A DNA stretch of 63,677 nucleotides, the filler included, from Craspedostauros australis (Eukaryota), in the NCBI GenBank assembly GCA_030167865.1. It is 6 parts of 6 records of this genome, joined end to end, with 100 filler letters (N's around TTAATTAATTAA, not from the genome) between each part and the next. Parts side by side here need not be neighbours in the genome. Positions count along the whole stretch, not along the records: positions 29,913 to 61,823 come from JALAGF010002806.1; 5 more parts are not named here. One strand, written 5' to 3'. Below the pieces are notes generated by a model. The model was not told where the DNA came from and searched no databases. It saw nothing but the letters and a program-made list of their open reading frames with translations. Every line of letters begins with the position of its first letter. Within the stretch, counting starts at the first letter, position 1. This document shows, piece after piece, positions 2,278 to 44,467 of the stretch. Both the position numbers and the translations under genes were made by a program.

Positions 2278-3995
2278 CAGTGAGGAGCATTGCGATGCGG
2301 GGCGGTGTGATGTGATGTGATGTGATGTGGTCGTACTGGTATCATGCTGATATCATGTTGGGAGGATCGAGTCGATTTGGGTTGATAGGATCACCACAGC
2401 TCGCACACTACGAGATAGAGTACACCTTTCAACTCGACGGAACAAAGTAGCACCACGGAGTAGCATCACATGGGCACAAGCGCCATGCGACAGTCGCATG
2501 AGCGGCGATGAGGAGCACACGATTCAAACTCGCGAATTCGGAGGCGTGAGAAAATGCTGCGGAAGCCGGAGCAATCGTGCGAGCGAGGAATGCCAGAGGG
2601 GAAAGCAATCTCGCATGCGTGAAGCCAAGCATCGGTGCATGCTCAGCTGCCTGCGTGCCTGGTACTATTGGTATGGCACGAGTAGAATCGGCAAAGCGCC
2701 CAAAATACTTGTATGTAAAAACACTCTGTATGGTAGAGAGACCAACCAACAGCAACCCTTGACTTCATTTTTTCATTTGCCACACATGCTCTCTCTCGTA
2801 GGTCGTACAAGCAGCATCGTCTCCTGTCTTCACGCGCATAGGACATCACAGTAGAACATGGCCCTCCAATACTATTCTACCACAATCTGAAAAGCTTGGA
2901 GAAATTCTTCACATCGCTCTCTCTCTCAACCTCAAGAGAGATGAATGAGGGGGTGAGGGAATGAGCAGCCAACACGTTGCCTCCGCGGATGCAGTTCATG
3001 GAGTAATCGTGCGGTGCATAGTTCATGCACGCCACACACGCTCTCTTTGTCTCTTCCTTTCTCCCTTACTCCTTCCACAAGGCTGCTTGTACCGGAACCA
3101 TGGGCGTCAGAAAGGGACGGAGATGAGCAATCTGATTCGTCTTCGTTGTGAGCGGCCGTTGACGTCCACTCTCTGCAACAGCTCAATTCGTTTCTCTGTC
3201 CGGCGTGCTTCTCGTCACGGAACATGCCTGTCTCTGTCTGCGTTTGGTCCTCAACCACATCACAACCACGAACAGAGAGAACACAGCCACGAAACAAGAC
3301 GCATCACGGGTAATCACCTCTTCCAGCTTCACAACACATCGCCTCCGTGTTCTGACACCACATCATTTGCCCCTGGTTAAGTACTCCTATTCACGCATGT
3401 TGCATCGTGTCAAGTCCAAGCGACACGGACAAAGTCAGCAACGCGAGCGAAATCCTCACAAACAAGCTCCATGTCAACCCTGCCACAACTTGGATCGGTC
3501 ACTACACATCCTAACCATCAGACAAACGATCACAAATTCAATGTGTTCGGGTGCTGGTCGGTGCGCGCAAAACGCCAGTCGGATCTTGTCAACGGAAGCA
3601 CATGCATCCGCCAAATCATCGCACAAACTTGTTCCTCCTCACATTTCCAGACCACCCAATTGGACCATGAACGAGCCTTCGCGCTCATGCTGAAATCTTG
3701 ATGCTTTGCTCTTCTTTGGCGCACGACATGTCTGTGTGGTATTGTCATCTTGTGCTCAATTATAATACTATACTTGCACGAATACTTGCACTTGCGGTTG
3801 TACTTTACTGGTAGTGGTGCTTGTGCAAATGCAATACTATCACTTACTGTACAAAACATACTAATAGGACGATCGTTTCGTCTTGAAGTGAATGTGACCG
3901 AAACGATATCAAACTCTCCACCTACCCATTACCGATCACCCATCATGCACCATCACGCACCATCACATACCATCAATCAGCATGTTGTGCTCTCT

Positions 3996-8098: not shown

Positions 8099-10404
8099 TT
8101 TCGTTGCTGGGTCCTTCACTTTGGTACGACTATCGATGGATTGTCTCCTTGCTTCAGTGTGCTCGTGATGGTGCAGGTGGTGATGCGAGTGCTCCGCGGT
8201 GCGAAGATGGATTGCACTTGAGTGGAGTTGCCTCTTGATGCTGTTGGTGGGAGTGGAGATATGTGAACGGAGCAGAGTAAACTACTAATATAGCAGTGTC
8301 TCGAAGAATATGTCAGCCTTGCCTTTCTTAATCTCTCCTTATCTCTCGTTGTGTCTGGCTGTGGCTGGCTTTGACTTATGTGGTATGTCTGCAAGTTGTT
8401 TTGCAAAGCTGTTCTGCAAACTGCACCCACTTGCCTCGATAATCTCTCAATGATCAGTCAATGATCTCTCAATGATCAGTCAATGATGAGTCGCTGATCA
8501 GTCGATCGCTTGTTATTGTGATGAACTGACGATGTGACCAATTCGTAAAATGGGGTGCAGTAGTTGATGCTGAATCGAGCAGATGACTGTAAACCAGAAT
8601 GGACCACCAGTGATCGGCAGAATAATGGAGTAACGACAGCACAGAGGTCGGTGGCAGCAACAAGAGGACTGGTTGAGAGGCAGTACCAATGGAGCATTGG
8701 CAGAGTGTTGGTTGAGTAGTTGTAGCAACCAGAGGGTGGCATCAGATGGACTGCGAAGTGATGGCGATGTCGATCGCGATCGCGACGGTGATGATACGAT
8801 GATGAGATGATGAAATGATGAGATGGTGCGCGCAGTAGGCATGGTACAAAGGTACTCTGTTGATCCTCGGATGGCACCTCCACAGAACACAGCAGAACAC
8901 GACAAGGATGCAACTACCACCATTCAACAACCAAGCGGCACAGCGCCAAACGAGTCTGCAGAACAATCGCGGGATGCGGTGCGGGGGAAAGCGCACATGG
9001 AATGCAAATCCGCAGATCGGCAATGGCGATGTTGCTACCAACTTGGTTTCAAATTTGTTGATGTCACAACGTCACGCTCGTCGAGGGTGGTGGCTTGCGC
9101 CGAATCCCGCCGCAAATACAACATCGCATTGTCGGCGCCTGTCCGTTCTGCATTTGTTCTTGTTTCAAAATGTGACAATTTTTGTCACCGTTGCAGACGC
9201 GTGTCGCCGAAGTGAAGACGAATTTTGGCATGCTGTTAACGCCAGACGTTAACTATGACTAATTTGCTCTTGTCCGACAGATTTCGTCATTTTACGAATG
9301 TGCCTTTCGCGCTTGCATTCATGGACCAATCAGACTTGTTCTAAAGATACATTTGGGACTATCTAACAGCCGACAAGAACAAAAAGGAATGTCAAATCAG
9401 GATCAACTACCTCAATAGTAACTCGGATACTCTAGACCGAGAAATGGCGCCACCATTTCCAATCCACGATTTCAACACAAACAAAGAACGCCATCCTCGG
9501 CTGAACAGCCCCGTACAAAACATGTCCAAGTTGCCACATCGAACCTTCATTTCAGGCTGGCGCGGTTGCTTGACATAATCAAACTTCAACAACGGATCGA
9601 ATTCAAGAACGCGAATCGAGTCCCCCATTCGGATTCGTTAGAGGCATTTCTCACAAACGCATCACCATGCGCCACCACACGCACGATCGACAATGACGAC
9701 CACAACGCAGCCGCGTGGCCGGTCGTTGAAGCCGCCATGGTCGCAGGTGTGCCGCGGGTCTGGATCATCGCAGGTGATGAAGAATTGAAGCATCGTGGGA
9801 ACTGCCACGATTGTTTTCGCGCTTCGATGGCTTTCCATTTCCGTCTTTCATGGGTGTGGTCACGGCTTTTCCGCGCTCGCTCTGCCTCTGCCTCTCTCCA
9901 TCCTTCCCACTACTTACGAACACGAGCAGTCGTATCCACAACTGCCAAGTCCGCCTCTCCGCCCCTGCGTACAGGAAGGAAGGAGACGGAGATGCGAGGA
10001 GAACCTGCGGCACCTTCTCGAGTCACGCTTGATGTCCAAGGTGCCGTTCAAACCCAAAGAGACAGCAGTGCGCCTCCTCCTCCTCTCGTTCTGGCAAAGC
10101 CCCATGCAGTCCTTCATCCTTCGCGTCTCCATCCACACACGTCAGACACAACACGCGTATCCACCAAGAGAGGCCAATGATTGCTCCGCTCGTCCGTTCA
10201 TCCGCTCGCCCGCTTTGCCCCCACGATCAAAGATCTTCTCTCCCTCCATTTCCTGCGAGGACTGTTTGGTGTTGCCCCTCCTGTCTCGGTGTCGTTCATT
10301 TAGTATAATACGACTACAATGCGTTGGCTGAACACGAAGCAGCATTCTGCCATGGTTCGTTGAATATCATAGAATATAATACGATACATCACAAACGACA
10401 CCAA

Positions 10405-10468
10405 TCAACAACCAGTCCAGCAGTCCAGTAGCCCAGCAGTCCAACAGTCCACAAGTCCAACAGTCAAC
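10405..10468. repeat. Degenerate 8-bp tandem repeat (CAGTCCAR)n
   Basis: ccagtccagcagtccagtagcccagcagtccaacagtccacaagtccaacagtcaaca, immediately upstream of the RING gene ATG. Confidence 0.65.
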
Positions 10469-12106
10469 ATGGGATCTTGGAGTGATGTCGGTCCGAATAG
10501 AAACACGCGCGCGAAGCATGATGCGGCAGCAGCACCACGGCCTCTGGCTACTATCATCGACAACGGCAATACCCACCGCAATACCCACCGCAGCAACCAG
10601 ATCGGGAGGAAAGGCACGAATGGCGACACCATTCCCATGATGAACGCATCGACTTGCCGTGCTCGTCGAAGTGTGAGCAACAACGATGACGGCAGCGATG
10701 ATCACAGCACCAATCAACCGCGTGACGATGTCCCTCACGGTCACCTTCGGTTCAATGCGGACCATGCAGAAGAGCGATCCGCCAATGAGCAGGCCGGACA
10801 TGGCGACGATGGGTCAGGCAGGATGGATCGTCTAGCGTCATCTCCAGGCAGCGACACAGAGTCCGACGGAGGGCCGCAGTTGAGCGCTCGGCGACCACCC
10901 GCAGAAGAACAGATGCGACGGCGGCATCGATGGTCGTTCCGGAAGTACTTCGAAAGGAGACCAAGCGGGCAAACCAGAACATCAGAAGCAGCAGCACCAC
11001 TACCACCATCGTCATTGTCATCGTTATCATCGTCATTGTCGTCCTCAGAACAACAACAACAGCAGCAGTCACGATCAAGATGGAGTACTTCTGGTATCAG
11101 CACTGTCGCTCGGGCCGTCCGACGAGTTGCAAGCATTGCCTCGTCTCAGAACCCCACCAACCCAAACCCCGAGAACCGTTCGCGGTCCACGATATTGACG
11201 AAGCGAGAGCAAAAGCGCGTTGACAAGCTGACCGAAGAGATGTCGATGATGTTGAACCAGCTGATCCACTTGCGAATCAACGACATCCCCCAAACCGTCG
11301 ACCCAATCGCGTGCGTCATTTGTGCCGAAGACCTGCAACCAAAGGACGTCGTGACCAAACTTCCCTGCGGTCATCTGTATCACTCCAGGTGCATCCTTCG
11401 ATGGTTCTTGCATTCCGGCAAGCGCGATCGGACAGTTATCCATCGAGTTCGGCAACAACAGTTGGAGCAGCAACGGCAAGCGACACTGGAGCATCCCCAG
11501 CCAGAGGCGCAATCGCGATCGCATCGTGCGCGGTTGCTGCAATTGCTCACGCCAAATGCAGCCCGTGCTCGTACCAACAGCACTGCCGCGTCACAACTAG
11601 ATGATCGCACTTCGACGTCGGCCTTGACGGACGCAGCTGCTGATGTCACCACCGCGCAGAGAGACCAGAATGACAATCGCAGTGGTCGAACTGCAGGCAG
11701 CCTGCGCGCAAGCTTCATCCAGAGGCAGCGTTGCACCTATGGATGGACCTGCCCCACTTGTCGTTATCCGATGACCTGCCACAGCGTGTCGAGCCAAACG
11801 TCTCTGATCAATGCAAATGCAAATGCGTTGGCAGATCGAGGCGCGGCAGGTGCAGCGAGGGTTCAGCAAGCGACAACGACGACAACGACGACAACAACGA
11901 CAACAACTGGAAATGCAGATGGAGATGCAAGTTCCGACGCCAACACAGAAAGCACGGCATCCTCTCCATCATCTCCGCTGTCTCCGTCCTCGATGGCCCC
12001 AATTACGAGCGTGTATGCCTGGTGCGGTTCGGATGCCATTTGCCTTCGGCTGGAGAAGCGGGTCAGCACGATGTCTCCGCCACGAGAACAAGAGCGTGAA
12101 CAGTAA
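10469..12106 (+). CDS. RING-H2 zinc-finger protein (putative E3 ubiquitin ligase) with very long insertion in the RING
   Basis: 545-aa ORF containing CVICAEDLQPKDVVTKLPCGHLYHSRCILRWF and a distant WTCPTCRY, i.e. the C3H2C3 ligand set. Start codon uncertain (several upstream Met). Confidence 0.8.
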   Translation: MGSWSDVGPNRNTRAKHDAAAAPRPLATIIDNGNTHRNTHRSNQIGRKGTNGDTIPMMNASTCRARRSVSNNDDGSDDHSTNQPRDDVPHGHLRFNADHAEERSANEQAGHGDDGSGRMDRLASSPGSDTESDGGPQLSARRPPAEEQMRRRHRWSFRKYFERRPSGQTRTSEAAAPLPPSSLSSLSSSLSSSEQQQQQQSRSRWSTSGISTVARAVRRVASIASSQNPTNPNPENRSRSTILTKREQKRVDKLTEEMSMMLNQLIHLRINDIPQTVDPIACVICAEDLQPKDVVTKLPCGHLYHSRCILRWFLHSGKRDRTVIHRVRQQQLEQQRQATLEHPQPEAQSRSHRARLLQLLTPNAARARTNSTAASQLDDRTSTSALTDAAADVTTAQRDQNDNRSGRTAGSLRASFIQRQRCTYGWTCPTCRYPMTCHSVSSQTSLINANANALADRGAAGAARVQQATTTTTTTTTTTTGNADGDASSDANTESTASSPSSPLSPSSMAPITSVYAWCGSDAICLRLEKRVSTMSPPREQEREQ

Positions 12107-19028: not shown

Positions 19029-19128
19029 NNNNNNNNNNNNNNNNNNNNNNNNNNNNNNNNNNNNNNNNNNNNTTAATTAATTAANNNNNNNNNNNNNNNN
19101 NNNNNNNNNNNNNNNNNNNNNNNNNNNN
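19029..19128. other. Artificial contig linker
   Basis: 44 N + TTAATTAATTAA (19073-19084, stops in all six frames) + 44 N. Confidence 0.97.
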
Positions 19129-21146
19129 TGAGTCACTCTCTCTCTGGATGCCTTGTCCCGGCGTCCCTGGTGTACCGTATCGTTGCAGCTTCATCACGTC
19201 GTCCTTGAAAGTACTGACGATGTTGTTGATGATGTGCGGTTGGTTCACCCAGCAATTGGTCTCGTCGTGGTTGAAGTTGATCTTACAACTGAGGTAGTCT
19301 TCGAGATCTTCTTCCACCTTGATACCGAATCGCTTTGCCTTGATGTCCCCCACNAGGTCCTTCAGCTCCTGTTCATCCCCGATGCACAGGCAGTCGTNGA
19401 CGTAGGTTCCGATCAGTAACAGTCTCCCTTCCTGATTCCGAATCAGGAGGCATGGATCCACCTTGCTCTGTCTGAATCCCATTTCGATCAGCATGTCGAC
19501 CAGCTTCTTGTTCCATTGCCTGGCGCTCTGCACGAGCCCATAGATTGTCTTCTTGAGCAACAAGCATTCATTTGCCTCATGCCTCATGCCTTTCGGGCAT
19601 TGCATGTAGATCTCTTCTTCGAGATCCCCATGCAAGAACGCTGTCTCGAAGTCGATGATGATGCAGTCCATTCGAAGAAGCATCTTCATGGTTAGCATCA
19701 CTCGNNNNNNNNNNNNNNNNNNNNNNNNNNNNNNNNNNNNNNNNNNNNNNNNNNNNNNNNNNNNNNNNNNNNNNNNNNNNNNNNNNNNNNNNNNNNNNNN
19801 NNNNNNNNNNNNNNNNNNNNNNNNNNNNNNNNNNNNNNNNNNNNNNNNNNNNNNNNNNNNNNNNNNNNNNNNNNNNNNNNNNNNNNNNNNNNNNNNNNNN
19901 NNNNNNNNNAACTCCTTGTTGATAGCCCCGCGCCACTTCTCTCTCTTCTCGGGATCAGCATGATCCCAGCACTCCTCGAACGTCGTTGGATCCAACATCA
20001 CAGCCGTATTGGCTTGTTCGGACCATTCACCATTCCGTTCGTTCTCAACATCTTGACTCGCAGCGATGAAGTCGATGAGTCTCATCCTCCCTTGGGTAGT
20101 ATCAATCATCATGCTGGCGACGTCTCTGTTGAACATCGACCCATCTGTGTGGAAGTTGGGTCCTCCAGTAGCCGCGGGGACTATCATNGTCTCCTGNGCA
20201 GTNTCATAGCCATCCTCATCTCCTGATGCTGATGCTTCGNCTGCCTCCGATTCCGAATCTGATTCTGATTCTCGTTCCCTCTCCTCTTGGGGAATCGGTG
20301 AGTTGTTGTAGCCTGCCAGGCCACTCACCATCCTCGGTACGCGCGCCAATGGTCTCACGGGAGTGCGAGCAGTCGATTGCTCAATAGCTGAATCGATCCG
20401 CCCCGCACGGTCATTGTCCCTTCCGGATTCATCGCCCTCATCATTGTACGATGGTTCTTCCCCTTGGGTAGGTAGCAAGTCATCTTGCTCGTGAGCGGTG
20501 TCATCTGTGTTTCCTTTCGTGTGTCCGGCTCTTCCGCTCCTCTCTGCTACGCCGATCTTCGCGTTCCTCGCGATATTCGAGCTTCGCCCCCAAGTCACTC
20601 TCTTTCTCTGGATTGCATCTCCAGTCTCANNNNNNNNNNNNNNNNNNNNNNNNNNNNNNNNNCTGTTGGCATTCTCAACACCCTTGAATTGCCCATACGA
20701 CTGGTTCATCCATGTCACGTCTCGCGTGATTAGGATCCTTGCCGTTGCGAGATTCATCATTCGGTATACACCGCTCGCATGTGACTGTCCGTATTCGACG
20801 AACATGGCCGGTTTGGACCGATCGTCCAGCTTCGCCTTGATCACTCGGCCTCCAATGAACACCATGCCAATCTCGCCGAACAAACGCAGTCTGTCCACGT
20901 ATGTGGGTGTCTGCCCATTGAATAGTACGCAAGCCGGTTCTCTCGACTTCGTTCCAATGATGTTCTCGAGTTGCGTTGCTGTTCTTGCTGCTTCGGCCCA
21001 TAGCTTTCCTCGTAGATGCTTTGGTACGTGGGTCTGATTGAGCATCGCCCTGACCTTTCCGCATAGCACAGCGAACTTCCGTTCCACGCGACCATTCTGC
21101 TGTGGAGTTGAAGCTGCCGTGTATTCGAACGTCGGGCCGAATCCCT
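19129..21146 (-). mobile_element. Ty1/Copia LTR-retrotransposon pol fragment (integrase C-terminus + reverse transcriptase)
   Basis: Open frame across the whole contig: TPQQNGRVERKF, LWAEAARTA, KAKLDDRSKPAMFVEY (integrase/GKGY region), then IDFETAFLHGDLEEEIYM, LKKTIYGLVQSARQW, GFRQSKVDPCL, YVxD (RT). INT-before-RT order indicates Copia. Confidence 0.95.
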
Positions 21147-21246
21147 NNNNNNNNNNNNNNNNNNNNNNNNNNNNNNNNNNNNNNNNNNNNTTAATTAATT
21201 AANNNNNNNNNNNNNNNNNNNNNNNNNNNNNNNNNNNNNNNNNNNN
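21147..21246. other. Artificial contig linker
   Basis: 44 N + TTAATTAATTAA (21191-21202) + 44 N. Confidence 0.97.
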
Positions 21247-32857: not shown

Positions 32858-33503
32858 GCATGATGGGTGGTTGGGTTGGACAATTACAGTGCAAACACAA
32901 AACACAAAAAGAAGGAATACTCGTATACGAGTATAATATTATATATTACGATGCATTGCACCATACATGTTATGCAAACAGAGAATAGAGATTAATCATC
33001 AATTGGCACGAAAGTAAACCATAAAGAGGTAAATCATACTATGCGTGCCTACTCGTACACTACGCGATACCGACAACAGCGCAGTTTCGTCTCTTGTCGC
33101 CTTTGGTGGATTCTGGTCATCGACACCACTGTCATGAATCGACATTTGCGAACACCTGATTGGTTGGTTGTGGATGAGCGGGAAGGAAAAAGGTATCCAA
33201 AGACAGACGCGACCATGTGCCAATCATGCGTGACGACAGTTTGTTCTTCGTTTTTGCCGTCGCTGGTTGATGTGATGCGAACGATCAGATGAAGCAGCTT
33301 TCCAACACCACACGCGCACAGACAGAGAGAGAGAAACAGCCTCCATCACACTTGTTGATGCAGGCACAAACTGACAAGCAGCAACACCAATAAACCATAC
33401 ATAGTCGTAGAACAGCCACCGAGCAGACACACGGGCACGAGTCATCACCAGAAGGACCACAGCCGAGAGTAACTTGTGTTGGATTATATCGCCACTGTGA
33501 ACG

Positions 33504-35051
33504 ATGGATTCGCAAAGCCTGCAGGGCATGTCGTCCGGCAACCTCTCATACGCATCGTCTGCGGCTGGATCCATCTCTTCCATGTCATTGCTGCGACGCC
33601 AGGCACCCAAAACCAACAACTCCAAGGAGGTCCCGTTCGATCAGGTGCTCCTCGACGTGCACATTGTCGATGTCGTCGGCGGCTGCCTTCAGGAGCATCG
33701 CAGCATCTTGATTCGCCAAGGCAAGATCCACAAGATCTACCCCAGCGTCGAGAGGCTCAAGGCGGACATCCAGTACTTGCTGGGCACGAAACATTGCCGC
33801 ACCTGGGATTTGAAAGGCGAGGCCTACGTCATGCCCGGATTGATCGATTGCCACGTCCACGTCACGGCTTTCACGGCGAGCTTCGCGTTGCTGGAGCAGA
33901 CGTCCGAAAGCTACGTCACGGCAAGGGCCTTGCAAACGTGCCGCGAGATGTTGTACCGCGGCTTCACGACGATCCGCGATGCCGGCGGTGCCGATCATGG
34001 CTTGGCACGTGCGCTGTCGGAAGGCATCAGCCGGGGACCGCGGCTGCTGTTCTGCGGCAAGGCCCTGAGCCAAACGGGCGGACACGGCGACATGCGGTTG
34101 CCGGGTGAATTCGCGAAGACGCTATCGCAATGTTGCGGTCTGGGACGCATCTGCGACGGCGACACCGAAGTGCGACGCGCCGTGCGTGATGAAGTGCGCA
34201 AGGGGGCCACGCACATCAAGGTCATGGCGGGTGGCGGTGTCAGCTCACCGACGGATCGCATCACGTCGACGCAATTCTCCACGGCCGAGCTCAAGGCCAT
34301 CGTCGAAGAGGCCGCGGCTGCCAACATTCCCGTGATGGCGCATGCCTACACGCCGCGTTCCATCGTGCGCGCCGTCGCGGCCGGTGTCACAAGCATCGAG
34401 CATGGCAACTTGCTGGATGCTGCGTCGGCGCAAGCCATGGCAGAGGCTGGGACGTACCTCGTGCCGACCCTGCTGACGTACGATCTGCTCAAGCGCCAAG
34501 GACTGCAACAAGGCTTGTCGCAGGACATGGTCGACAAGGTCGATGACGTGCTGGAGGCTGGCATGCGATCGATCCAGATTGCCTACAAGTACGGCATCCG
34601 CATGGCGTTCGGCACCGATTGCTTGGCGGCCATGCGGGATTATCAGCTGCATGAATTCGCGCTGTTGGAAGAGGCAGGACTGCCCATGGATGAGATACTG
34701 CGCACGGCCACATGTCACGCAGCCGAGCTGGTCAACATGAAGGATGAGATCGGCGTCGTGGCGCAAGGCGCGCGTGCGGATCTGCTCGTGCTGAGTGAGA
34801 ATCCGCTGCTGGGATCGGCAGTGTTCGAAGATTGGGACGCGCACTGTTTGGCTGTGATGAAGGACGGAGTGATACAGTTTGAACCGCAAGGGGGTTTGGC
34901 CAAGCGCAGATCGAAGAGCAAGACGAGATCATCGCAGTTGCCACCAACCTCGCCCGTCAAGACCATCTCGGTGAACGCATCCGCGTCAACGACGCCTGAC
35001 AAGTCAAGGATCTCACCCACCAAACGGCGTTCTAGCAAGAAGGGGAAGTAA
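33504..35051 (+). CDS. Metal-dependent amidohydrolase, prolidase/Xaa-Pro dipeptidase-like subgroup
   Basis: Intronless 515-aa ORF: MPGLIDCHVH (HxH), RGFTTIRDAGG, SQTGGHGD, IKVMAGGGVSSP, MAHAY, SIEHG, FGTD, GARADLLVL. Confidence 0.93.
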   Translation: MDSQSLQGMSSGNLSYASSAAGSISSMSLLRRQAPKTNNSKEVPFDQVLLDVHIVDVVGGCLQEHRSILIRQGKIHKIYPSVERLKADIQYLLGTKHCRTWDLKGEAYVMPGLIDCHVHVTAFTASFALLEQTSESYVTARALQTCREMLYRGFTTIRDAGGADHGLARALSEGISRGPRLLFCGKALSQTGGHGDMRLPGEFAKTLSQCCGLGRICDGDTEVRRAVRDEVRKGATHIKVMAGGGVSSPTDRITSTQFSTAELKAIVEEAAAANIPVMAHAYTPRSIVRAVAAGVTSIEHGNLLDAASAQAMAEAGTYLVPTLLTYDLLKRQGLQQGLSQDMVDKVDDVLEAGMRSIQIAYKYGIRMAFGTDCLAAMRDYQLHEFALLEEAGLPMDEILRTATCHAAELVNMKDEIGVVAQGARADLLVLSENPLLGSAVFEDWDAHCLAVMKDGVIQFEPQGGLAKRRSKSKTRSSQLPPTSPVKTISVNASASTTPDKSRISPTKRRSSKKGK

Positions 35052-36206: not shown

Positions 36207-37556
36207 CTTCGTTCACTTCGATTTGTTATGAGCAGAGTTGATCCGGAGACTGGCCTGATCTGATGCAGGATGGGAAAAGCGTGTTGTGACGATAGTTGCG
36301 GCTGTTCCAACGGTGTCGCCTTCATCACTCGCACGTACGCATGTTCGTGTCAATCCATCATTTGTTCTCATTTGGATCTTTGCGAAAGCGAAGGTCTGCG
36401 GTATTCCTGGAGAATCCAGGATGTTCCTCCCTTCTGCAGGATGTCGCGTGTTTGGAGGGTGCAGAATGACATTTCTCAGTTCCGCCATCCACGTTGCGGC
36501 GGCACATGGTTCACCGATGCCTCATCTGTGCCACGACATCCCATCTGTCTATCGTTTGATCCGATGTGTTTCATTTTCATAGTCCGAGTACGTGCAAGAG
36601 TACTATGACCCACTTGAGTGAACGAAGATGCAGTCGCGCCTAGTCGTGACTCAGATTTTCGTAAAATTTAAAATGACATATAAAAACAAAATCTAGACCA
36701 CCGTGCGATCTTATCCATATAAAAAATGGTCTTCATCCGACCTTTGCTTCAAGAGTTATACGCCCTTATCTACCACGCACAACGCCGTGTTATTTTTCCT
36801 CCTCAAATTTCGGAAATGGGTCTTGGTTGTTCGTGACTTAATATTTTCGATGGTGTCTTTTCGGTTAATTACGGTTATATTTTGGCGATATGCACCTCGT
36901 CAGCGTTTCTTCCTATCGCAACGTCACTATCTTGATCTATTCATGATGGACATTTCATTGCGCTATTCTCCGGTTTCCGCACTTGGGTGTCTCGCTTCTC
37001 CTGCAGCTTCTTGTGCATGCGAATTGCCTTGTTCGTCACAGGCTACGTGCTCCTCGTCGCCATCCCGTTTGTCAACAACCCTCCATTGGTATCATCCATG
37101 CTATCGACAAAAAATAATCAGAGCGATCTATCCAATTCAACTATCATCTGCGTTTTTCAACTTGTTCATGAAGATCTACATCCATCATTCCGTTTTTGAC
37201 GACGGCTACCACAGACAGCACACAAAGGTTCTGCTCCTATTTCATGACGGACATGGCGTTATCCGCCATGCATTCGATGACCACGATGATGCTGACAGCG
37301 ATGGTGGTGTTGATTGGGGCAGCATTGACATAGACAGCTGTGATGACACCCAGGATAGCGTTGTCAGTGGCTATGGTTGCCGCCATGGCAACGAAGGTGG
37401 TGGTGCTACCCACAGCGATGCCGTCGTCGAGGACGATGGTGGTAATGGCAACAAAGATGGTGATGGGGAAAGCAACCCGAATGATTCCATCAAGAAGGCA
37501 ATGTTGATGGCAATGAAGGTGATGTTGGTGAGAAAAACGACGGTGATGATGGCAGG

Positions 37557-37718
37557 TGACAGCTTTCTCCGTACTTTTTACCTCTTTACAAATCATATGA
37601 GTCAAAATACTGGTCGGAGATTGTCCTCGGACAACTCACAATAAAAGAACAAGAGCTCCGACCAGGGCACGCAACAACGGGCCAATACGTCTCCAGTAGT
37701 TACTTGTGCACTTTGACA
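37557..37718 (+). repeat. 5' LTR (162 bp)
   Basis: TGACAGCTTTC...CACTTTGACA; about 87% identical to 43233-43395 by manual alignment. Confidence 0.95.
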
Positions 37719-37731
37719 GATTAAGAGTCAT
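37719..37731 (+). promoter_or_regulatory. Primer-binding site complementary to tRNA-Lys(CUU) anticodon arm
   Basis: GATTAAGAGTCAT abuts the LTR's terminal CA. Its reverse complement AUGACU-CUU-AAUC is a tRNA-Lys(CUU) anticodon stem-loop. No canonical TGG PBS at the LTR edge. Confidence 0.78.
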
Positions 37732-37772
37732 GGTTTACCAACAAGCATATCACCTTTACAACATCAACCACC

Positions 37773-40700
37773 ATGGCGAGACCGATCAACAACCAAGCTT
37801 TGACAGCCGTATCCAAGTAACTTGCTGACCTTGATGACAAAGAAATGGAGTTCATCACCAAGCAACTCAGAAGGGTCGAACACACCATCAAGAGTCCAGA
37901 CAAAAACATCATCCAAGCGCTGGCTCTCTCACCAACACTCACCTCGATCAACATTGAGAACATCCTTCGCATCTTCGCTTTCGCGAAAGAACGGCAAATC
38001 GACCAAGCAACCGATTGGGTGGCCATCAACGAGTTCACTACAACGACCAGGTATGAGGTACCCACCATCGAGACTCCTGTCACCAGCAAGGCAACCCAAA
38101 TGCGGTTGAAACTCGCGATGAAGGAAGCCGCCAATCGTGAACTCCCCAAGGCAACGAGCCGCAAGGTTGTGGTACACTCACCAAGGCACCCACTGGAAGT
38201 ACGCCGATCGCCATCAATGCCAACTGGATGGAAGTATGACCCAGTCACCCTGCTAGAGGTGGAGCCATTCAGCGGACTCAACATCAAATGGTACCAGTGG
38301 AAGATCAACTTCATCCGCCAACTGGTCACAACCAGATACGCAGACTACATGCAAGAGACACGCCAGGCCCACTACTGCGAGGACGTCGACACCCAGTTCT
38401 ACGCAGTGCTCAACTCGAAAACATGCAAAGGACACGCTAACTACATGGTCCTTGTGGAAAGAGACAGCGGTCATGCGGCCTTCCAGGCCCTCATCCGCAC
38501 ATACGAATCCACTGAGAACAGGGCCGACAATGTGGCAACAGAGGAAGACAAACTGCCCAAACTCGTCTACGACGGATCTGGACCGTTCAGCGCGTTTGTC
38601 AATGACTTCTCCATGTCTGTTCAGACAATCAAAGACAATGGCAAGGCCATGAGTGACAAACAGAAGATTGCAAGATTCTTCCGCAACATTCGCGATGAGT
38701 GATTCACCAGTACGGTCTCTCGCCTCTAAGAGGCAGACAAGTCCTTCAATTGGGTCCGCAAGACTCTCATGAAGCACGACAAGGTCCTCTCCAATGCGGA
38801 GATCGACAGATCTCCATGGCGGAATCGGCGCACACAGCCGAAGGACGGACGGATGGACCGCAAGCGGCCACACGAGGCTGCAACCGAGGACCGCAACAAA
38901 CCCGCAATGTACCAACTTCCAGAAATTGTATTCAGAAGCCGTCTCACCCCAGCACAAGTGCTCGTAGTGGAATCCTTGCGACACTTCCGCAAGACAGGAG
39001 AGCTCATCAGCAAGATGACGCTCAAGCACAACAAACCCGCTGAGTTTGCCAAGACCCAGGAGCAGCACGCTCAGCGCAAACCCAACAGGTGCACCAGATT
39101 CGGCAACAAGACCAATCGAACCAAGAAGTATGGACCATGTGACAATGGCTCCTGACAACCAATGACAGGCATTTTGCGCCAGCAGTCGGAGGTCGCCATA
39201 TGCATCAAGGACCAAGACAGTGTGGACTTGACGCAAAAGGCCGCGGAGAGCGGGCCAGGACATACGACCCCGGATACGCTACGAGAGTCGCGTCCAAGAA
39301 GCGCCGACCCGCATACAGAGCACACGATTCGACGGGCAAGAGTAGCGAATAGTAGCCACGGCTATATCATTCTAGACTCAGGCACGGACGGTGACATTGT
39401 TCATGAGTCTGGATGGGTGGTAGCCCAAAATCACCAGCAGCAGTTCCACCCCGAGGGGCGACAGTGGACTCGCAAATCGAGACGTTTCCGATGGTTGACG
39501 CAGTGGCAGCGTACGAGCCGCCAGAAGGCGGAGTGATCCTCATCAAAGCATATTACGTGGCTCTCAACAAGCATCCACAGCAGATGGAGTTGCTGTTCAA
39601 TACACACCACATGCGCACGTTTGACATCAGCATCTACGATCGGCTTTGACAATACAACAGGCAGCAACGGATATCGTCTGGTGACATCAGCATCCTGCTG
39701 GCCAATCACGACAGCAATACCCTGCGCATCCCAATTCGTAAACCAACAGCTCGCGAGCTAACTCAAACTAAGAATATTACTATATGCGACAGACACAGAC
39801 GCCTTTGGCGATCCCACGCCAGTGTTGACTTCAACAAGGTCTTTTGGCATCTCCCACAACAGGTGGTCGAGAAAACGAAAGCAGCATCAACGCAGCTGGC
39901 CGATACTCCCATGGAGGTGGAACCAAGACTCATCCCAAGGCAGTACCGTGTGCAGCGAGCGGGCGCGCTACGGTCACACCGAATCAAGGGAAGAGTGGAA
40001 ACCGATCCATTCTTCTCCACGGTCCCATCCATTTGACACCACAAGTGCTTCCAGCTCTTTGCACACAGCGAGTCCAAATTCATCTGGGCAAAGCCGCTCA
40101 GCAGAGAGGCGATGGCGCCAGGGGCGCTCACCAATTTCATCGTGCAGGCCAGGGCACCTGACGTACTCATCTCGGACTACTCACAGGTCCAAGCTGTCAA
40201 GGCATGGAAGGCTGTGACGATGCGGTACATGATCGAGCACTCCTTCACGGCTTCCATGAATCCAAATCAGAACCGAGCAGAGCAGGCAATCAGCGACATC
40301 AAGCGACACACATACAAATTGCTTTGGGCAGCGTCCGTACCGCTCGCCTTCTGGTGCTACACGGTACAACACGCCATCGATGTATGGAACTACACGGCAA
40401 AGGAGAGCATTCAATGGAAGAATCCCATCGAACTGCTCCACAGGAACACTCCAGACATCTCCATGTTCAGGTTCACGTTCTTTCAACATGTCTGGGTATT
40501 TCGAGCCGATGACCAAGTTTCCACATCACCCATTCAAACCAGGTTACTTCCTGGGAATCGCATGGGGCCATGGAGACCCTTTCATATACAACATATGGTT
40601 GCTGCGGGGCGACGACGTAACCAAAGGCACTGCCCTGGTACAGAACATTGTGGAACCACGAATTGCAGAAGACGCAAGCGCTCCGCAAATCACCGACAAG

Positions 40701-43220
40701 GAAGTTCAGCGCATCGCACGCCTCGATCTCATACACACTACTACCAGAGACAACTTGGGGCAACGAGCGCGAACCAAGACGATGCTGGTGCAGCACGCTC
40801 GACAGGTCCGTGAGGCCATCGACGCGATTCCTGTGCGGTCGGGGGCGGCTGCTCGCAATCCTGAGGAGGGACCGCTGGAGACCAGGGGCGTCGTGGTCAA
40901 CGAAAATGCTATTCCGCATGACGACTGATGGTTCGGTCAGCAGAATGTCATCATTGATGACAACAACAACCACAACAGCGGGCCCACAGGCGCAATATCC
41001 GACGACGACGGGGACGATGATCGCTCAACTGGCAACATCTCGAACGAATCCGATGATGACGAACCGGTGAGGATCCCAGATCCTCCCCAGCAGCGGATTC
41101 AGGGGCGTATCGACACTCTGGCTGAGCGCGAGCATGATTAGATGTTCCAAAATCAGATCGCAACAGACGATACAAACGAACCAGCAATTACATCCATCGC
41201 AGGCCACTCATTCCGAGACGGACATCTCCATCTCAATGTGAAATAGGACAACGATGAAACTCAATGGTTCCGATACAACATCCTGAGGGCAGACCATCCC
41301 GAGCTCGTGGCGCGATACATCATCACCAACAAGCCAAAATGGCATGACAGGCACAATCGACAGTCAACGACAATACTAAAACGGGCAAAGCACGCTGTTC
41401 GCGCGATACGCAGACGCATGCAACGAATCGAGCGCATGCACATCTTCACAGTCGACAACAATGACAGCATCGCCATCCTGAGGCACATACAACCAGGAAA
41501 GAAGAAGCCGAACAAGGACTTATTCGCTACAGTATTCCAATACGGTGTAGAAGTGCCACGCAACATGCGACACGCACTCCAACTTGACGAAGCCAATGGC
41601 AACACATTGTGGAAGGACGCAGCAAAGAAAGAGATCGACGCTCTGATTGACCTCGATTGCTTTGAATTCCATCCATCCACTCACCGACCTTCATCGTACT
41701 ACCAGAGCACCAAGCTCTGGCTCATCTTCGCTGTGAAACAGGATCTGTGGCGCAAGGGGCGGCTGCTAGCCGACGGTCACCTCATTGAACTTGCTGACAA
41801 CATCAGAGTATACTCATCAACCGTCAAATCAACCATTATACGGATACTTGATGTCATCATGGACGCAAACAAGCTGAAGCAACTCTGCGGCAACGTGGGG
41901 AATGCAGTCACCAATGCCTACACCAGCGAGAAGATATATGCGAGGGCAGGAAAATAGTTCGATTACAGAGAGGGTCAGACAATCGTACTCAGGAAGGCAT
42001 TGTATGGACTCTGATCGAGCGCACAAAGCTTCCATGCTCACTTTGTAAACACACTCTCATCCATGGGGTTCTCTCCATCACGGCATGACCAGGACGTATG
42101 GATCAAGTGGAGGGATGACACTGGGTATGACTACATATGCATGCATGTTGATGACTTCAAGATCATGGCAAAAGAACCAGACCAATACATGAAGGTCATC
42201 CAGCAAGTCTACACCATCAATGACATTGAACCACCCAAATACTATCTGGGCAACAACGACTCCAGGAATGTGAAAGGCAAATGGAGCATTGGATGTGACA
42301 AATACATTGCAAACGTGATGGATAACGTCAAACGGCAGCATGGAACACACCATGACCAGCATGTTCCCATGTGGGACAAGGACCATCCGGAAACAGATGA
42401 CTCCAAACTACTCACACCAGATGAACACCAACAGTTCCAGCAGCTCATCGGCATGCTGAACTGGGTCATTCAACTTGAACGTTTCGACGTCGCCTTTGCA
42501 ACTTCTTCACTCTCTCAATTCACTGCATCACCTCGGAAAGGCCATCTAGCAAGAGCACTCAAGATACGGGGCTATCTCAAGAGTATGTCCACACTCAGAA
42601 CACAAATCAACTCCAGACCCATGATATTCGACAACTTCAACTCGACACCGTCCAACCCAGAATTGGTGGTGCAAATGAAGGAAGAAAACCCTGAGGCACA
42701 GGAGGACGTCGACGACCGGTCACCGAAGCCAATCTATCCGGAGCTGCCAATGTATGCATTCGTCGATGCTGACCATGCGCACGATTTTGTCACACACCGA
42801 TCAAACACTGGGATCATCCTTTTCCTTGGCAGGACGCCTGTGTACTTCTCGAGCAAGCGGCAGGCATCAGTCACAACGTCTACATATGGAGCAGAATTCA
42901 ACGAGATGCGATCAGTGACGGAAGAAATCATTGCACTCCAATACGCACTCCAATCGCTGAGAGTCCGCGTCCAATCACCGACAATCACATTCTGCAACAA
43001 CAATGTAGTGATCTCGAAAACGACGATCGCAGACAGCCTATTGCAAAAGAAGCACGTGGCAATATCATTTCACTGAGTCCGTGAGGCTGTGGGAGCTGGG
43101 ACAATGGTTCCAATCCACGTCCCATCAGCTCAGAACTTCGCTGGCATGCTCACCAAGGCATTGGTGAGGCCAACACTAACACTTCTTGCCACGACCCTGT
43201 TCTACGGGGGTCCACCTTGA
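37773..43220 (+). pseudogene. Copia gag-pol polyprotein with multiple stops/frameshifts
   Basis: Gag from ATG 37773 (RDSGHAAFQAL). Protease YIILDSGTD (~39364). Integrase NPNQNRAEQAI/FWCYTVQH/TPDISMFRF. RT YGVEVPRN..ALQLDEANGNTLWKDA, KALYGL*SS, HVDDFKI. RNase H FVDADHAHD..RSNTG, STYGAEF, KKHVAISFH*VREA. Confidence 0.93.
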
Positions 43221-43232
43221 GATCAAGGGGCA

Positions 43233-43395
43233 TGACAGCTTTCTCTGTACCTTTTACCTCTCTACTAGTCATATATGTCAAAATACTGGCCGGGGGATTG
43301 TCTTTGGACAAATCACAATTAAATAACAAGAGCTCCAACCAGGGCACACAACAACGGGCCAACATGTCTTCTGTAGTTACTTGTGCACTTTGACA
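43233..43395 (+). repeat. 3' LTR (163 bp)
   Basis: Direct repeat of 37557-37718, followed by the TSD GCAGG. Confidence 0.95.
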
Positions 43396-43400
43396 GCAGG

Positions 43401-44467
43401 GATGGCGATGGTGACAAGGCAACAGGTGATGGCGACGGCGATGGAAGGGACGGCGATCATCTTGAAAGCCCTGCGATTTGGAGACATCAAAGGCACCACA
43501 ATGTTGCTGGTTGATGCTTCCCTATTGAAGGGCAAGCGGCTGACTCACTGCACGAGCCCAAGAGCTCGATGGTCTGCAAACATGCTTGGTGTTCCCAACA
43601 CTCACGAGATTCAATACGAGGATGAGAAAGCTTGGTTAATTGAAGCTTCGAATGTCACCAATGCCAAAATGGTGGAGGAAGAGGCTTGGGAGTGCTCCGT
43701 TGTGAACGAACTTGGCACGACTGTGAAGGAAGACCACAAGTAGTCATGTCAACTAGTACCAGTGGATACAAAATGGCAAAGATGAGGCGAAAAGCCCAGA
43801 AGAGTGTGAAACAGAGTGGAGCGAATGTATTCAAAACAGCCCTCCGCAACAACCTCATGGAAACTGCTGATCACAACGCAATGTGGAAGGATACAACTGC
43901 TGCTATGGATCTTCCTCCTGTTACAACACCAGGTTGCGCTGCAAAGAAGACTCGATTGTCTGAGCCTATCCTGACTATGTGTTGGCAGAGCTGATCAAAA
44001 TCTGCGTACTTGCTTGCCATGACTCAAGGAACAGAATGGCGGAGTACGACGCACGCCAACAATTGATGACGATGGAACGGGTGAAAACAGACTGGCACGC
44101 TCAACTACAAGTATCACCACTTAGAGTAAAAGCATACCTCATCACGGACTATCTCAAGTTCAAAAAAGAACAAGAAAAGAAGTCAAAAACCGCTGAAACG
44201 ATGGAGTGCACAATGGTAAGTATGACTGCAAGCGCCAGTGCGCAACCAACGCTGCATGATTCTGGTTGTGTCGAAGAAGAATTTGGACGGTGGAAAGCCA
44301 AGGAAGACGAAATTTTGGAGCAAACTCACGATGATTTGCATGCGCATGCGGCAAAACAAACAGTCGAAGGTGCGGAAACATTGAAGGAAAATGTGACGCG
44401 GGAAATTGTGAATCGTGTCAGAACCAGATTGCAAGCGACAAATAATTCAAAATGGGAATGGGTGTGA
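43401..44467 (+). pseudogene. Decayed ORF of the host TIR element (continuation of 37168-37556)
   Basis: D/G-rich frame ...NDGDDGR|DGDGDKATG continues across the TSD. Overlapping frameshifted ORFs 43381-43743, 43686-43994 and 43979-44467 follow. No DDE triad recognisable. Confidence 0.5.

Follow-up and report, generated by a model that had tools for sequence, protein, structure and literature searches.

What primed reverse transcription in a Copia-like element of Craspedostauros australis whose 5' long terminal repeat (LTR) has no TGG at its edge and runs instead into something resembling the complement of a tRNA anticodon arm? We consider this question in a stretch of DNA of 63,677 nucleotides, which we call the window as a whole and along which positions are counted unless another locus is named. 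An earlier note had read the motif as the binding site of a half tRNA-Lys(CUU) and had gone on to connect transposition with stress-induced tRNA cleavage. The explanation we favour, to which we assign a rough probability of 0.75, keeps the first part of that reading and gives up the second: the element would be a dead copy of the diatom type whose lineage was primed by a 5' fragment of tRNA-Lys(CUU).

The first requirement for any statement about a primer is to know exactly where the LTR ends. The element is bounded by two LTRs on the plus strand, namely a 5' copy of 162 nt that runs from TG to CA (37557-37718) and a 3' copy of 163 nt (43233-43395), both defined as direct repeats and by pairwise alignment. 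The direct-repeat search gives an identity of about 87-88% between them, and the alignment spans TGACAGC to TTGACA, followed by one further shared G. With the LTR end placed at the CA at 37718, the element is flanked by a perfect 5-bp target-site duplication, GCAGG, with its left copy at 37552-37556 and its right copy at 43396-43400, both read on the plus strand. A target duplication of 5 bp is what Copia elements usually make. The CA end and the perfect duplication together show that the motif begins with the very base that follows the 5' LTR, and the claim that a sequence other than TGG starts directly after the LTR is thereby borne out.

Between the LTRs, the internal region is split into many short open reading frames in several frames, from which the usual parts can still be picked out on the plus strand. 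A 293-aa open frame without family match (37821-38702) is assigned to the gag region solely by its position. An integrase remnant (40049-40676) is recovered by tblastn with the N-terminal part of pol from L064, a related locus described below (E 1.3e-17), and an RT/RNase H remnant whose frame is broken by stops (41187-43160) aligns with polC of the same locus at E 1e-122. One piece of the latter, P0001, is an open frame at 42015-43073. Directly abutting the 3' LTR, a putative polypurine tract region, GAGATCAAGGGGCA, is proposed at 43219-43232 from position and purine content only. No Pfam family was found in ten ORF pieces of the element, the RT/RNase H pieces gave just two sub-threshold chance matches to Pfam at E 10, and a search of solved structures with P0001 returned no match. 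Sequence comparison was more informative. P0001 has 147 homologues at E ≤0.001 with 33-65% identity, many of them with PF07727 (RVT_2), and the few that are named by organism belong to the diatoms Fragilaria crotonensis and Ditylum brightwellii; polC of L064 itself matches PF07727 at 2.2e-25. With L064 pol as the tblastn query, integrase comes before RT in the element, which is the Copia arrangement, and together with the PF07727 of the relatives this sustains the original assignment to Copia. Judged by these features, the element is a decayed, old Ty1/copia-type LTR retrotransposon of the diatom kind.

The surroundings of the element are repetitive. It sits in a low-complexity region of GATGGTGATGG-type repeats (37200-37556 and 43396-43470), and a repetitive coding region may have been interrupted when the element inserted, since a 315-aa open frame (36697-37644) enters the 5' LTR. 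Neither the motif nor the LTR has a further copy in the window. Another Copia pol ORF, a distant relative, lies on the minus strand at 19081-21198 (705 aa), with RVT_2 (1.1e-23) and a retroviral SH3-like integrase domain; around it neither an LTR pair nor a primer binding site (PBS) was found, and it may be a truncated copy. The window starts with a tandem array (4-243) that has a period of 8 nt, units resembling GCTGCGAT/GATGTGAT and about 20 overlapping register copies. Host genes near the element are those for an amidohydrolase (33501-35051; PF01979, 1.7e-52) and a RING-finger protein (10373-12106).

The motif, GATTAAGAGTCAT, lies on the plus strand at 37719-37731, exactly as the earlier note gave it, and this is its sole exact copy in the window. 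Its reverse complement, AUGACUCUUAAUC, has the build of an anticodon arm, in which C32, U33, the anticodon CUU, A37 and A38 are framed on either side by 2 bp of stem. Complementarity to the tRNA runs one base further than had been noted, to 37732, and the putative PBS is GATTAAGAGTCATG (37719-37732). The complement of these 14 positions, CAUGA-CUCUUAA-UC, comprises five bases of the 5' stem strand, a loop of seven bases and two bases of the 3' stem strand, and the last two pair back to G30-A31. By hand arithmetic, a random 11-mer satisfies this anticodon-arm grammar about once in 256. When up to two mismatches are allowed, the 13-mer has one match in the window, compared with 1.25 expected from shuffles. 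As such matches are no rarer than in shuffled sequence, the case is built on position and grammar, rarity aside.

Known tRNAs match the site closely. Viral contigs were scanned for the 17-mer CATGACTCTTAATCATG, which gave 17 exact matches; six of these are the anticodon arm of tRNA-Lys(CUU) genes called by ARAGORN, and the two genes among the six that were inspected in full belong to giant-virus bins. Nucleotides 27-40 of all six genes (CATGACTCTTAATC) pair with the PBS perfectly over 14 nt. A list of yeast tRNA oligonucleotides in the available text of PMC3708533 gives ATTAAGAGTCATACGCGCTA for LysCUU and TTAACAGTCGCACGCC... for AsnGUU, and the PBS shares 12 nt with the LysCUU oligonucleotide. 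These two comparisons substantiate the proposal that the motif is the complement of a tRNA-Lys(CUU) anticodon arm. A tRNA scan of the window returned no genes, and the matching tRNAs are those of viral contigs and yeast, not of the host. Self-priming of the Tf1 kind finds no support at this locus, because complementarity between the 5' LTR and the PBS region nowhere reaches 6 nt. In its arrangement, the PBS is of the half-tRNA type: it abuts the 5' LTR, complements an anticodon arm and, to judge from the pairing, ends in the 3' stem strand. That it is a primer site for a Lys(CUU) half tRNA is the core of our reading, and we consider it probable.

If this is correct, the lineage, while it was active, would have begun minus-strand DNA at a 5' piece of cytoplasmic tRNA-Lys(CUU) instead of the CCA terminus of an intact tRNA. 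The 3' end of the fragment would be nucleotide 40 (C40), which lies within the anticodon stem, on its 3' strand. Nucleotides 27-40 of the fragment (CAUGACUCUUAAUC) would anneal to the PBS next to U5, and the reverse transcriptase would extend the annealed fragment into the LTR (U5-R). We infer that the host has a tRNA-Lys(CUU) with a matching arm, that a fragment ending at nucleotide 40 is produced from it and that this fragment serves as primer.

Whether the arrangement is peculiar to one decayed copy can be judged from its relatives. Metagenome contigs were scanned with the RT/RNase H alignment, which yielded 79 loci at 36-51% identity; viral contigs contained no relatives. Seven of the loci (L014, L016, L020, L021, L024, L043 and L078) have paired LTRs, and in all seven GATTA stands directly past the 5' LTR and unrelated sequence follows the 3' LTR. 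The remaining repeat pairs are either exact contig-end overlaps or internal repeats, the latter being a second pair in L020 and the one in L064, and define no LTR ends. Junctions between an LTR end and an anticodon arm were then sought at about -4.2 to -5.0 kb from the RT match, or at +1.1 to +1.9 kb, the positive offsets serving contigs in which the LTR is collapsed and read through. Such a junction is present at the expected offset in 37 of the 79 loci, of which 9 are of a Met type, 22 of an Asn type, 4 of the Asn type with an extra base, 1 of a Ser type and 1 of the Lys type. All but one of the 37 start with GATTA, the exception being L050 with AATTA. This invariance arises in part by construction, because the search pattern demanded xATT[A/G], a bias toward GATTA from which the seven loci with paired LTRs are free. 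No junction was recognised in 20 of the 79 loci despite sufficient flank, and another 22 are too short.

When identical contexts are collapsed, 34 distinct junctions are left, the window included. The Asn type is the most frequent, with 19 distinct junctions that read GATTAACAG(T/C/A)x (one of them with AATTA) and correspond to a GUU arm; three more have an Asn-like GUU arm with one extra base. Nine read GATTATGAGAC(T/C)(G/A)A and correspond to a CAU arm, which we presume to be like that of elongator Met. A single junction, GATTAGCAGTCGGC, corresponds to the GCU arm of Ser, and two, those of L064 and the window, read GATTAAGAGTC and correspond to the CUU arm of Lys. Throughout the clade, members appear to keep GATTA, which would pair with U36-A37-A38-U39-C40, and to vary in the part that faces the anticodon and the 5' stem strand; the primers used would be elongator Met, Asn(GUU), Ser(GCU) or Lys(CUU). 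Half-tRNA priming is, on the strength of these junctions, a clade-wide trait. As the other relatives keep the register but have the arm of Met, Asn or Ser, Lys can be seen as a rare variant within a clade primed by half tRNAs. The test set in the earlier note, by which sister copies should carry the same site, came out mostly against it: GATTAAGAGTC is found in L064 only, that is, in 1 of 79 loci, and TTAAGAGTC is likewise present at this one locus.

Some loci fall outside these types. Neither a more permissive anticodon-arm pattern nor CA+TGG revealed anything at the LTR edge that is conserved from locus to locus among the 20 junctionless loci and L013. Strings of CA+TGG do occur near the expected offsets in junctionless loci, and we rejected them as candidates; the only one that is shared falls inside the LTR of L043. 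The string in question, ATGGTGCCGGGCG, recurs in L007, L041, L042 and L065. L013 (GATTGACTTCTG) was left untyped, because the base opposite U33 fails to pair. The Asn sites with an extra base, GATTAAC-N-AGTC, have C, T or A as N and occur in three lineages, represented by L008 (6447), L047 (776) and L077 together with L078 (5469 and 484, respectively); facing U33, this additional base would form a bulge or a mispair. In L071, two junctions of an LTR end with GATTAACAGTC at 1016 and 2341, 1.3 kb apart, suggest nested or tandem copies. Over the 405,797 nt of the 79 loci, a search for tRNAs gave a single gene, a tRNA-Lys(UUU) on the minus strand of L007 (4662-4735), about 800 nt downstream of the Copia RT match. 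It was dismissed as a primer, as its arm does not fit the PBS.

The only other element of the Lys type, L064, has open frames, with pol running to 2510, gag at 2609-3880 and pol again from 3881. Its site, CA followed by GATTAAGAGTCGTG, lies at +1363 from the start of the RT match, and the geometry of the window element predicts +1381. The two PBS sequences are equal at 13 of 14 positions and share the Lys 11-mer plus xTG; their sole difference, G versus A opposite nucleotide 29, still pairs with U. The LTR of L064 would extend over about 120 nt, from TG at 2509 to CA at 2628, a size in the range of its relatives, and this boundary is deduced, given that the contig holds a single LTR copy. In the stretch 2612-2642, the gag ATG is located 17 nt ahead of the LTR end so placed, which would put the primer site inside the gag frame. 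The primer site of yeast Ty1 likewise lies within the gag coding frame. Since gag and pol of L064 are in frame and separated by a single stop (3878-3883), pol expression by stop-codon readthrough is suggested, and not by frameshifting.

A tree of the RT/RNase H region places the two Lys-type elements with respect to the others. It comprises 61 rows, 19 loci having been excluded for more than two stops or fewer than 200 residues in the translated match. One clade of 35 rows contains all 20 plain Asn rows, three Asn rows with the extra base and 12 untyped rows. The other, with 26 rows and an SH-aLRT value of 97, contains the Met group, Ser, L008, L064 and the window. Within it, the window and L064 are basal and form an unresolved fork with long branches of 1.06 and 1.31, and as both branches are long, their shared basal place may be a product of long-branch attraction. 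Constraining the two together, a pair chosen post hoc, costs 0.33 lnL (AU p = 0.32). All that this shows is that one common origin for the Lys type is not rejected.

This division of the tree bears directly on the alternative that the family originally had an Asn(GUU)-type site, GATTAACAGTC, and that a C-to-G change after insertion gave this dead copy its Lys look. Since about 12-13% of positions are unlike between the two LTRs of this copy, changes within a site of 14 nt are to be expected, and the Asn type is just one substitution off; L016 and L071, which read GATTAACAGTCAT, agree with the window at 12 of 13 positions. Moreover, the Asn type is the commonest among relatives, with 22 plus four extra-base sites among the 37 that were typed, and the Lys type is known from one of the 79. 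All 20 plain Asn rows, however, belong to the opposite clade, and the clade of the window contains Met, Ser and Lys types with one extra-base Asn-like site. L064, with its intact frames, bears the Lys site. Rough arithmetic points in the same direction: at about 6% change per site and copy, an 11-mer would be kept with a probability of about 0.5, against about 0.01 for this one specific change alone. We consider such a conversion unlikely and hold to a site that was of the Lys type when the element was active.

A different alternative concerns not the tRNA but the way in which the primer is made. The earlier note had gone on to suggest that priming by a 5' half of tRNA-Lys could couple transposition to stress-induced tRNA cleavage, and the primer would then be a stress-induced half. 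Stress-induced tRNA halves are cut within the anticodon loop. The PBS pairs with nucleotides 36-40, the very part that is invariant in the relatives. These nucleotides would be missing from a half that was cut in the loop, and such a half could not bring a 3'-OH to the LTR edge. A coupling to stress would agree with the reported activation of diatom Copia elements by stress (available text of PMC2806351) and with the increase of 30-35-nt tRNA fragments in Phaeodactylum under iron starvation, but in the text available from the latter study a Lys fragment is not named (PMC4247016). One supplement of that study contains no arm sequence of tRNA-Lys or tRNA-Asn, and the fragment Table S3, which lies outside this supplement, may bear on the matter. 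For Ty5, the primer end is ascribed to RNase P-mediated internal cleavage, as stated in the accessible part of a review (PMC5371799). The pairing narrows the cleavage site to a position after nucleotide 40, within the stem, and this argues against equating such primers with stress halves, which we regard as very improbable primers here. Hardly credible is, lastly, that the anticodon-arm likeness arose by chance and that the element was primed by itself, by a whole tRNA further downstream or by another RNA: the 13-mer with up to two mismatches is indeed not rarer than shuffles would give and 20 relatives with adequate flank lack a recognisable junction, but the same grammar and register recur at the LTR edge of all seven relatives whose LTRs are paired and across 37 of 79 loci, and the window element has neither complementarity of 6 nt or more to the LTR nor a TGG at the LTR edge.

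With priming by a Lys(CUU) fragment as the preferred reading for the window element, we can ask what it implies for the clade. Tentatively, and at somewhat less than even odds, we propose that the diatom-type Copia clade primes from 5' tRNA fragments ending at nucleotide 40, with several switches of primer brought about by one or two PBS substitutions and with at least four tRNAs in use. A half-tRNA primer would be easily exchanged, since a single base separates the Asn arm from the Lys arm. The pattern suggests that the choice of primer within the clade is free only at nucleotides 27-35. Elongator Met, Asn-GUU, Ser-GCU and Lys-CUU are all readers of ANN codons. The Arg-UCU half-tRNA primer that the earlier note cites is ANN-reading, too, and ANN-reading tRNAs share a loop of the t6A37 type. 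That all these primers are ANN-reading with such a loop points to recognition of the 3' side of the anticodon arm by whatever generates the primer end. Initiator Met and Ile, the half-tRNA primers described elsewhere (available text of PMC6317226 and PMC5371799), are ANN readers as well.

These considerations translate into a simple rule, open to testing, by which the PBS can be located in diatom Copia elements, namely an LTR end followed by GATTA and the remainder of an anticodon arm. Pipelines for LTR elements that require a PBS matching a tRNA 3' end, such as the filter in PMC7466962, are expected to miss or discard such elements. The locus itself is of little weight, being a dead copy with a known mode of priming. 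The clade-wide rule, if unpublished, would be a modest but useful contribution to annotation and to thinking about how primer ends are formed.

In the literature that we searched, the primer site of diatom Copia elements is nowhere described, with supplements, Repbase and GyDB outside the scope of the search and possibly holding a description. Among the results for PBS strings, only PMC5445492 (FunCo1) and PMC3708533 (yeast oligonucleotides) were relevant, and the rest were unrelated primers; for diatom, LTR, primer binding and tRNA combined, methods statements and general texts were all that came up. Among known systems, one of the closest is that of the Copia-like CoDi elements of diatoms (PMC2806351, in part), which the window element resembles in that its nearest named RT relatives are from diatoms, its LTRs are short and its RT is divergent. 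'tRNA' does not occur in that paper and 'PBS' occurs once, and in the text that was covered, 12 of 17 matching passages, priming is not discussed.

In kind, half-tRNA priming is not new. It is classic for Copia, being the mode of copia, Ty5 and several Copia lineages of plants and fungi, and the element adds another example. The register of its PBS is, as we understand it, exactly that of Drosophila copia and yeast Ty5, for which Kikuchi 1986 and Ke 1999 are said to give the length of the primer. As described in the accessible part of PMC5371799, the PBS of copia and Ty5 also abuts the 5' LTR and pairs with an anticodon stem-loop, and the primer is a 5' tRNA fragment whose 3' end comes from internal cleavage. 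The difference lies in the tRNA, which is initiator tRNA-Met in copia and Ty5 and would be Lys(CUU) in the window element. As to the tRNA itself, the nearest likeness is to the FunCo1 Copia elements of Pezizomycotina, whose PBS, ATTAAGAGTCT, is reported to be complementary to an internal region of tRNA-Lys (PMC5445492, available text). FunCo1 and the window PBS have 10 nt in common (ATTAAGAGTC) and point to the same part of the same tRNA; the hosts of FunCo1 are fungi, however, and the base after GTC is T there and A in the window PBS. The likeness is drawn from the published PBS text alone, in a paper that, as far as its available text goes, speaks of a 'classical PBS' and holds no discussion of a half-tRNA primer. 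A further comparison is with plants, where half-molecule primers are known in several Copia lineages, half tRNA-Met in Osser, Bryco and Gymco-II and half tRNA-Ile in Bianca. In the part of that source available to us, plants have Met and Ile halves only (PMC6317226), whereas the clade to which the window element belongs appears to draw on Met (elongator-like), Asn, Ser and Lys arms.
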